From Candidatus Wukongarchaeum yapensis (GTDB taxonomy: Archaea > Asgardarchaeota > Wukongarchaeia > Wukongarchaeales > Wukongarchaeaceae), in assembly GCA_016840425.1 (NCBI GenBank), contig JAEOSI010000155.1, positions 1 to 5,653 on the forward strand: a DNA stretch of 5,653 nt, read 5' to 3'. The stretch's first letter is position 1. Each line of letters begins with the position of its first letter. Positions 803 through 2,512 of the stretch are shown here, one piece after another. A program made the position numbers and the translations under genes. Below the pieces are notes generated by a model. That model saw only the letters and a list, made by a program, of their open reading frames with translations, made no database searches and was not told the origin of the DNA.

Positions 803-847
803 CTTATTCGGCGATAAGTTCCCTTGCGAAAGCTGGGAGTAGTTCAC
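803..847 (+). mobile_element. 45-bp minimal IS200/IS605 derivative: left end fused directly to the right-end tail
   Basis: 803-837 matches the left end of the 1855-2053 element (32/35 nt). 838-847 (AGTAGTTCAC) is identical to that element's right terminus. Contains the imperfect hairpin CCCTTGCGAAAGCTGGG. The left boundary (802/803) is inferred. Confidence 0.75.
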
Positions 848-886
848 TCATCCTCCCCCGTTCTCATTTTATTATCTTATTATCTT

Positions 887-1834: not shown

Positions 1835-1960
1835 AATCAAAGAAATAGGAGTAAGTGAACTACTTCCAGCCTTCGCAGGGAGCTTCCTATTTCAACGACG
1901 GGATCATCATTATTCAGCCATCTCCACAGGCGTAAATTCGGACAGTCCCTGTCCTACTCT
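1835..1960 (-). ncRNA. Putative TnpB omega/reRNA: ~105-nt scaffold plus ~20-nt flank-derived guide TTACTCCTATTTCTTTGATT
   Basis: TnpB reRNAs overlap the tnpB 3' end and right end, with the guide taken from the right flank (established). Seen here: stem GGACAG-GGA-CTGTCC (1954-1940), ACGCCTGTGGAG, TTGAAATAGGAAGC, a terminal hairpin and TCAC. The TSS and guide length are inferred. Confidence 0.6.
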
Positions 1961-2053
1961 TCTATAGTGTTATTCTTATGACTATAAATAGTTGATTATT
2001 ATTGTTCGGCTTTCATCGCCCAGCTTTCGCAAGGGGACTTCTCGCCGAAGAAG
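1855..2053 (-). mobile_element. 199-bp non-autonomous IS200/IS605 (tnpB-type) element, PATE-like
   Basis: On the minus strand: left-end hairpin CCCTTGCGAAAGCTGGG, with an outer TTCGGC/GCCGAA stem; a TnpB C-terminal remnant VGQGLSEFTPVEM (1957-1919); and right end GAAG-CTCCCTGCGAAGGCTGGAAG-TAGT-TCAC. GAAG/TCAC fits the IS608 guide/cleavage pairing pattern (GAAT/TCAA). No tnpA or tnpB ORF. Confidence 0.85.
1983..1990 (-). promoter_or_regulatory. TATA-like box (TATTTATA) upstream of the omegaRNA scaffold
   Basis: Matches the archaeal TTTA(A/T)A consensus and lies about 25-30 nt upstream of the first scaffold stem. Confidence 0.45.
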
Positions 2054-2512
2054 TTAAAAGTATGTTAGTAAGTCTTTAGCATGATTTTTTGGGCTTATAA
2101 CTAACCAGAAAATTTTCGTAATGTAGCCCTGTTCGTTTATTAAAAAGGTACTTCTTTTTAACCCAAATTTCGGAGAATAAACCCAATATATATTTCCAAC
2201 TTCTTCATTGATGTCTGATAATAGTTCAAAAGGTATTTTGTGTTCTTCTGAAAACTTTTTGAGTTCGGGAGGTGTATCAGCGCTAATCCCTATTATTTCT
2301 ACGTTCTTTTTCTTAAAATCCTCAAATTTTTCCTTAAAACTTAGAATCTCAGTAATAGAACGGGGATAGAAAACACTATGGAGGAAAAATAAAACCACGC
2401 TTCTACCTTTAAAATCACCAAGTTTTACCTCTTTCTCATCTTTGTTTAAGAGTCTGAATTCAGGCGCCAGATCCTCAACTTTTAACAAAGAACTCATTTC
2501 AAAACTCTCCAT
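2054..2512 (-). CDS. Cys-free peroxiredoxin-like protein, copy B, with a MITE-derived N-terminal extension
   Basis: 2054-2488 differs from copy A at 4 of 435 nt (S->G, S->N, D->N and one synonymous). Possible starts are ATG 2512, ATG 2497 (both inside the MITE) or the ancestral TTG 2488. Confidence 0.85.
   Translation of the reverse strand: MESFEMSSLLKVEDLAPEFRLLNKDEKEVKLGDFKGRSVVLFFLHSVFYPRSITEILSFKEKFEDFKKKNVEIIGISADTPPELKKFSEEHKIPFELLSDINEEVGNIYWVYSPKFGLKRSTFLINEQGYITKIFWLVISPKNHAKDLLTYF

Follow-up and report, generated by a model that had tools for sequence, protein, structure and literature searches.

The window analysed here is the whole of contig C160 (5,653 bp) from the metagenome-assembled genome (MAG) of the Asgard archaeon Candidatus Wukongarchaeum yapensis (2.16 Mb, 277 contigs, 38% G+C, 92% complete). 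Its SSU rRNA reaches 1391 bits with the archaeal model and 1057 bits with the bacterial model. Positions 1855-2053 carry, on the minus strand, a 199-bp derivative of the IS200/IS605 family that has no open reading frame (ORF) and belongs to the tnpB-only (IS1341) type. Judged by its ends and its sister copies, this stretch is a palindrome-associated transposable element (PATE), i.e. a non-autonomous IS200/IS605-family element. It lies between its upstream neighbour, a peroxiredoxin gene (2512-2054), and the gene of a DUF92 membrane protein (1795-887), all three being read from the minus strand in the order peroxiredoxin, element, DUF92. Below, G000 denotes this genome, G001 a genome of the same genus, X1 and X3 two metagenomes, and C followed by a number the contigs of G000. 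The element and its borders comprise:

2054-2058, minus strand: TTTAA, target and transposon-adjacent motif (TAM), directly 5' of the left end; its TAA is the peroxiredoxin stop codon
2004-2053, minus strand: left end, with a subterminal imperfect hairpin TCCCCTTGCGAAAGCTGGGC (2018-2037) and a GATGAAAG box
1958-2003, minus strand: AT-rich spacer that includes the TATA box; the junction left by the deletion is found just 5' of the scaffold
1983-1990, minus strand: TATA box TATTTATA, derived from the tnpB left-end promoter; predicted start at about 1957-1960
1855-1957, minus strand: predicted omegaRNA scaffold, 103 nt (100.1 bits, E 9e-25 with covariance model R1, see below)
1917-1955, minus strand: relic tnpB codons VGQGLSEFTPVEM, recognised by translation against the tails of full-length TnpB proteins
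1835-1854, minus strand: putative guide TTACTCCTATTTCTTTGATT, which is flanking sequence (reverse complement of 1835-1854), 40-60 nt upstream of the DUF92 ORF start (1795)

Both boundaries are exact: following TTTAA (2058-2054), the left end begins at 2053, and the right end closes with ...GTAGTTCAC at 1855. They are set by at least 13 copies in which homology stops at the same bases and the flanks are unrelated, which bears out the claim of the initial annotation that both transposon ends have been kept. In four independent metagenomes the depth of the element is 8-25 times that of its flanks, and loose ends accumulate at 1854 and 2058/2059, in agreement with the element ends. Because ends and junctions recur in independent metagenomes, an origin of the element as an assembly artefact was rejected. 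The linkage of this particular left flank to this particular right flank comes from the MAG contig alone; among the contigs listed, none spans from flank to flank.

A genome-wide search with positions 1835-2053, after which the matches were extracted together with their flanks, returned at least 13 ORF-less copies with unrelated flanks. The element is indeed, as had been proposed from the single copy, a protein-free mini-element of a multi-copy IS200/IS605 family. Nine copies measure 195-202 bp (83-94% identical to the copy in the window; the left end of two is disrupted), two about 210 bp and two about 270 bp. One additional copy is a 923-bp element with an internal deletion. Every extracted copy reads TTTAA, then CTTCTTCGGCG...GTAGTTCAC, then unrelated flank, so that the sister copies carry different putative guides, as the initial annotation had supposed. 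Of 13 copies whose left end is intact, 11-12 have TTTAA immediately 5' of it. For copies C77a and C168, clean empty sites are found in G001, the two flanks being adjacent without target duplication (for C77a, ...CCTTTAA/ATTGGTAAG...). By the evidence of these sites, both copies are real insertions after TTTAA, without duplication and later than the split of the two species, and the TAM is TTTAA, one of the two types anticipated beforehand. Mini-elements combining a left-end hairpin, an AT-rich/TATA stretch and a complete scaffold are also present in other genomes (loci L095, L087, L096 and L106).

The parent elements are present in the same genome. It contains 31 matches to the Cas12f1-like_TNB domain (PF07282), and the right end of the mini-elements closes 13 tnpB-linked loci, three of which (C59, C137 and C205) have long ORFs. 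The TnpB of C59 (P0001, 397 aa) carries HTH_OrfB, OrfB_IS605 and TNB domains and aligns with ISDra2 TnpB (E 1e-43), its GIDVG, AVEKL and ERDYN motifs falling on the catalytic D, E and D; the ORF of C137 is as long. On this alignment, cognate tnpB genes with intact RuvC D-E-D residues, which the initial annotation had called for, are present in the genome. The closest relative of the genome's TnpB (78% identity) comes from a Candidatus Hodarchaeota MAG. One 199-bp sister copy (G000 C177:4059-4257) directly abuts a TNB-domain match (C177:4252-4404).

The left ends of the full-length elements on C137, C143 and C97 start after TTTAA with a similar hairpin, followed by GATGAATCGCGGTGTTTATAA. They carry GTTTATAA at the place matching the TATA box of the mini-element, and the tnpB ATG lies about 40 nt further on. 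The TATA box seen at 1990-1983 is therefore the transposon's own, and would be the native tnpB promoter of the left end. TTTATA is kept in 11 of the 13 mini-elements, with one-base variants in C147 and C144. In the 199-bp type it lies about 23-27 nt upstream of the first scaffold stem, a spacing that fits the usual archaeal distance between TATA box and transcription start. Scans for bacterial sigma-70 promoters and terminators are not applicable to this archaeal host. The sequencing runs listed for the window and for 1800-2520 included no RNA run, which speaks neither for nor against expression.

The coding part of tnpB has almost entirely gone. A tnpB-like reading is limited to 13 relic codons followed by stops, and 199 bp are too short for a transposase. 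The minus strand from 1957 to 1855 translates as VGQGLSEFTPVEMAE with three stops after it, and the 13 codons match the TnpB tail LGQGLSEFTPVEIEPLPREISASSVVEAGS of the full-length copies. That about 13 tnpB codons survive was thus correctly recognised, but they are not terminal: they sit about 27 to 15 codons before the TnpB stop. In the full-length proteins the tail after this region continues as ...IEPLPREISASSVVEAGSxLx up to a stop codon placed 15 nt before the right end. The remainder of this tail can be recognised in the mini-element as DNA (GTCGTTGAAAYAGGAAGC), where a deletion and replacement of 14 nt has put it out of frame. The alignment to the full-length copies spans the LGQGLS codons to GTTCAC.

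Among the tnpB copies themselves, this conserved region of about 117 nt is read in two frames, one in C205, C45, C125 and C164, the other in C59 and C137. The resulting tails read ...GQGLSEFTPVEIEPLPRE... or ...RAGTxRIxACGDRTSTERD..., and likewise ...GQGLSEFTPVE... vs ...RAGTxRIxACGD.... Since the same nucleotides are used in both frames, it is the nucleic acid, not the protein tail, that is constrained. As far as these frames go, this shows that the C-terminal tail of TnpB is shaped by RNA, not by protein.

The secondary structure of the right end was proposed from an alignment of 26 right ends of the own genome, and the covariance model R1 was built from the same alignment. In the window the structure comprises:

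1940-1954, minus strand: stem 1 (6 bp), a scaffold module
1935-1939, minus strand: GAAUU, pairing with AGUUC in the 3' tail
1927-1930, minus strand: CCUG, pairing with AUAGG (1886-1890) in a 4-bp long-range stem (stem 2) that is CCUG/CAGG in the family
1897-1925, minus strand: central AU-rich stretch, in place of a variable central hairpin that is enclosed by GAU/GUC in the family
1862-1883, minus strand: right-end hairpin, a scaffold module
1855-1861, minus strand: tail AGTTCAC, the 3' end of the element

In the 26 sequences, 96.9% of the cells are paired, 4 of the 32 pairs are changed on both sides and covariation is 0.141 (0.106 when shuffled). R1 gives 27 strong matches in the own genome and also matches in 41 of 151 genomes sampled from the phylum. 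A set of 37 matches (29 loci from other genomes of the Asgard phylum, together with own sequences) shows 94.7% paired cells, changes on both sides in 21 of 32 pairs and a covariation of 0.456 against 0.155 in shuffled alignments (0/500), while slid controls reach at most 47% paired. For 43 loci of TnpB homologues from diverse archaea and a few bacteria the values are 92.8%, 24 of 32 pairs, and 0.404 against 0.140 (0/500). Because the alignments of 37 and 43 sequences were fitted to the model, they are biased toward the structure, and the gap to the controls is still large. The structure occurs in many phyla at the 3' end of tnpB, with or without TnpA. Its central hairpin ranges from 0 to about 50 nt in intact tnpB genes (locus L108, for instance, has a 414-aa ORF and a 95-nt scaffold). 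The near-terminal imperfect palindromes, left (2018-2037) and right (1862-1883), are likewise conserved and covarying across copies, and there are no inverted terminal repeats. To judge from covariation, the last 103 nt are a conserved, covarying structure, predicted to be a minimal omegaRNA scaffold; the earlier view that part of tnpB and the right end persist as an RNA module agrees with this.

The predicted scaffold can be compared with that of ISDra2, which has 116 nt in the account of Nakagawa et al. (PMC10097598). According to the parts of that account concerned with trimming, the 5' part (-231 to -117, Trim1) is dispensable, as is stem 3b (-70 to -49, Trim2), which is disordered. Both RNAs belong to homologous TnpB proteins and have a stem 1, a pairing of the 3' tail and a terminal hairpin before the guide. 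The 3' strand of the ISDra2 pseudoknot occupies -5 to -3 (-6 and -2 being non-canonical); here -6 to -2 pair with a strand beside stem 1. Stem 2 is formed by -35 to -32 with -84 to -81 in ISDra2 and by CCUG/CAGG at -35 to -31 with -90 to -87 in our family. Stem 3a (-48 to -42) corresponds to GAU/GUC at -45 to -43, stem 3b (-70 to -49) to the central hairpin beyond GAU/GUC, and the loop of stem 4 (-20 to -17) to that of the terminal hairpin at -19 to -16. However, the two RNAs have no detectable sequence similarity, and the match of the modules, as far as the published description goes, is positional. Moreover, stem 1 is here a simple hairpin (3-nt loop), and the tail forms a nested pairing rather than a true pseudoknot. 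In the protein alignment the ISDra2 segment VAAGIS (about residue 377, corresponding to about -109) falls on LGQGLS, where the retained part of the mini-element begins. By this positional match, an AU-rich stretch replaces the counterpart of stem 3b in the copy in the window and the internal deletion removes the equivalent of the Trim1 part. The 199-bp element would therefore lack just the two parts that are dispensable in ISDra2.

Variation among eight close ORF-less copies is unevenly distributed. It amounts to 0.08 variable sites per site in stem 1, the linker and stem 2 and 0.10 in GUCGUUGAAACAGGAAG, against 0.28 in the spacer; the right-end hairpin reaches 0.32 and the left end 0.42, the latter value being inflated by the divergent left end of C147. 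The difference between the conserved RNA modules and the spacer has p 0.017 in a Fisher test, which is rough because the eight copies are related. In C175, C268 and C201, the stem-1 triplet CAG is changed to TAG together with a compensating change of CTG to CTA. On its face this double change is at least one compensated event, in which a codon is destroyed and the pair is kept.

The two mini-elements of about 270 bp (L012:1496-1770, i.e. G000 C154:4360-4634, and L019:1501-1767, i.e. G000 C144:3474-3740) contain an extra segment of about 95 nt between the TATA box and stem 1. Changes between the two copies are visibly compensating (CGAAATA/TATTTCG vs CGTGCTAC/GTAGCACG), and none of the tnpB sequences in the genome matches the segment, which could either extend the guide RNA at its 5' end or be a structured RNA of its own.

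These data suggest, with a probability that we put at about 0.6, that the element is a PATE derived from a tnpB-only (IS1341-type) transposon whose left-end promoter and omegaRNA scaffold are used with TnpB in trans. An internal deletion would have joined the left end to the last ~103 nt of a tnpB-only element, the left end supplying a TnpA-type hairpin and the native tnpB TATA promoter. We infer that transcription would start from this TATA box at about 1957-1960 and produce the scaffold followed by a guide derived from the flank. TnpB from the full-length siblings (C59, C137 and C205) might then load this RNA in trans. The complex would cut DNA carrying TTTAA and the guide sequence, that is, the site left empty after excision, and repair from a sister copy would restore the mini-element. 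The PATE would in this way exploit both TnpA and TnpB of other elements. A tentative extension of this reading, for which we would not claim even odds, is that the ORF-less copies are hyperparasites in which the fusion of promoter and omegaRNA recruits TnpB for their own retention, with a guide set of at least 13 loci served by two or three nuclease genes.

The genomic setting of the element bears on the proposed target. Positions 1-848 (arm A) and 1855-2955 (arm B) are inverted repeats, 98-99% identical, which flank DUF92. Arm B ends in the 199-bp element and arm A in a shorter one, their right ends facing inward:

803-848, plus strand: 46-bp terminal-only derivative, located at the TTTAA after the other copy or allele of the peroxiredoxin gene

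In this derivative, left-end positions 1-35 are fused to the right-end tail via the shared hairpin, and both TATA box and scaffold are missing; its empty site in G001 reads TTTAA/TCATCC. A second terminal-only element is located at G000 C104:5105-5149. In X1 the peroxiredoxin allele of arm A has about single-copy depth and that of arm B is almost absent, while the reverse applies in X3; the arms behave like alternative alleles rather than two copies. G001 has the arrangement of arm A, with peroxiredoxin and DUF92 convergent and the TTTAA of peroxiredoxin joined to the 3' side of DUF92. In the ancestor, therefore, the flank upstream of DUF92 did not adjoin the flank with the peroxiredoxin TTTAA. 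This leaves two explanations: an inversion of the DUF92 segment that had one breakpoint at the right end, or a pair of elements flanking DUF92 in a contig assembled as a fold-back chimera. The inverted duplication is thus probably a strain chimera or an inversion, and the empty allele of the guide, which the initial annotation took as a possible target, may for this reason never have existed. The junction of right end and guide is itself real, as an X3 contig covers 1820-1901.

The only exact match of the guide in the genome is the element's own flank, which is preceded by TTCAC and not by TTTAA. Since the occupied site lacks the TAM, neither self-targeting nor regulation of DUF92 is expected. 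The latter had been suggested for this guide and was rejected on that ground; moreover, there is no second site with TAM and guide in the genome. A TldR-like regulator locus was considered and also rejected, the guide site having no TAM at the promoter to be regulated and the cognate TnpB keeping its D-E-D residues.

Several observations weigh against a working guide RNA at this locus. The flanks of the copy in the window, as seen above, were not ancestral neighbours, and no joint skipping 1855-2053 was found in the contig sets of four metagenomes. The search for TAM and guide in genomic and viral sequences, proposed at the outset, found no target: the end of peroxiredoxin with TTTAA followed by the guide, and TTAA followed by the guide, have 0 exact matches in the metagenome_contigs set, TTTAA followed by the guide has 0 matches in viral_contigs, and a search of the genome with the 16-nt guide at up to 3 mismatches gave low-complexity matches only, none with TTTAA at 1 mismatch or fewer. 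The copy in the window is the most diverged of its subfamily and has its lowest R1 score; its right-end hairpin contains a C:A mismatch, and the stem of its left-end hairpin contains a C:C mismatch. Its single-sequence folding is unremarkable (z -1.1, an uninformative value), and an Rfam scan of the window at E up to 10 returned no relevant family; RAGATH-18 gave sub-threshold hits only, at 29.4 and 25.1 bits against a gathering score of 44.9, in a sister and a full-length copy. A full-length ancestor could already have acquired the double change in stem 1, with no further effect than the truncation of a dispensable tail. The copies differ by about 6%, so that their amplification is not very recent. 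Finally, a cognate TnpA was not found in the 92%-complete, 277-contig MAG. Its single complete Y1 TnpA (G000 C70:7544-8568) lies within a tnpA-tnpB element that has no TTTAA and carries, at its left end, a hairpin (GCTCAAATCCTTCAGGGTTGAG) unlike that of our family (CCCYTGCGAAAGCTGGG, target TTTAA); a second PF01797 match, on C117, is a fragment. For the earlier proposal of mobilisation by a TnpA in trans, a partner was thus not found in this incomplete assembly.

The mismatched hairpins, the low score and the lack of a target and of a cognate TnpA, together with the persistence of 46-bp derivatives without scaffold (803-848 and on C104), would suit an inert deletion relic, that is, a PATE needing only ends recognised by TnpA, in young copies of which scaffold and TATA box survive by chance. 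We regard this as unlikely, albeit worth serious consideration. Chance survival does not predict that variation among ORF-less copies is about threefold lower in the scaffold modules than in the spacer, nor the compensated change in stem 1. Differently built mini-elements, here and in other genomes, all keep the scaffold from stem 1 on, and the 93-117 nt that they retain exceed what TnpA would require, since work on IS608 reportedly found that it needs only roughly the last 40-50 nt. If the constraint acted on DNA instead, the extended right end would serve in single-stranded form for TnpA binding or excision. Such hairpins fold as well in single-stranded DNA, covariation cannot separate DNA from RNA, and the right-end hairpin and the TCAC tail undoubtedly serve as signals for TnpA. 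On the other side, the stems that contact TnpB in the solved ISDra2 omegaRNA occupy the same positions as these modules, and the structure accompanies tnpB across many phyla whether TnpA is present or not, so that we consider a purely DNA-level constraint very improbable. An exapted regulator or promoter, in which the outward TATA box drives DUF92 or a nuclease-dead TnpB uses the guide on it, also appears improbable. The element does read toward DUF92, whose ORF starts 60 nt past the right end. However, sister copies show no uniform orientation toward the genes beside them, the guide match at the occupied site follows TTCAC and not TTTAA, the cognate TnpBs keep an intact catalytic triad, and in G001 DUF92 has the opposite orientation relative to peroxiredoxin without any element between them. 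Use of the scaffold with TnpB in trans remains the reading that we prefer.

PATEs were first defined in Haloquadratum walsbyi, where they include terminal-only forms of about 50 bp, produced by deletion between palindromes, as described in the relevant passages of that work (PMC3119063). They have also been noted in Geobacillus stearothermophilus, and Meers et al. state that PATEs often encode omegaRNAs needing TnpB in trans (passages of PMC10055086). Altae-Tran et al. (PMC10691335, with reference to the OMEGA paper of 2021) report that stand-alone omegaRNAs, once mobilised, act in trans, as shown experimentally. The present element resembles PATEs in being too short for a transposase, in its near-terminal palindromes without inverted terminal repeats, in the absence of target duplication and in its core deletion, and the 46-bp element at 803-848 resembles the terminal-only forms of Haloquadratum as there described. 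It differs in its Asgard-type archaeal host and in a deletion junction that leaves about 25 nt between the native TATA box and the first stem of the omegaRNA, a fusion not described in those passages of the cited PATE and omegaRNA papers. Like the stand-alone omegaRNAs of OMEGA systems, it is a locus without effector or transposase, with compatible effector copies in the genome and copy-specific guides from the flank. However, function in trans was established by experiment in that case and is deduced here, and the nuclease is a TnpB of an archaeal clade. RAGATH-18 (RF03064), presented as the reRNA of IS607 TnpBs in the part of PMC11061315 that deals with it, is also a TnpB guide-RNA scaffold, with weak similarity to the central part of sister copies; since these scores lie below the gathering threshold and the copy in the window gives no match, the element is not a member. 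In every feature that can be read from its sequence the element agrees with both PATEs and omegaRNAs, and on this evidence it is a well-supported new example of a PATE with a stand-alone omegaRNA and not a new kind of system. It opens no new question, because trans-acting stand-alone omegaRNAs and omegaRNAs of PATEs have already been described.

Provided that the RNA is produced and used, a selfish mini-element would have been brought by selection to the same minimal scaffold as the Trim1 and Trim2 engineering of ISDra2. The locus would then provide a scaffold of about 103 nt, together with TTTAA as the TAM, for a clade of archaeal TnpBs that is uncharacterised, and an archaeal OMEGA in which guide and nuclease genes are unlinked, ORF-less loci being about as many as tnpB-linked ones in a single genome. 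Should the guide set of the hyperparasites exist, it would represent a natural split of guide and nuclease genes, as a step toward a CRISPR-type organisation, in an Asgard archaeon.

The two arms of the inverted repeat also differ by a 101-nt indel (2486-2586) between peroxiredoxin and argC, by which the longer peroxiredoxin ORF loses its ATG at 2512. The 101 nt are absent from arm A, from G001 and from contigs of two metagenomes, and the indel represents a strain polymorphism.

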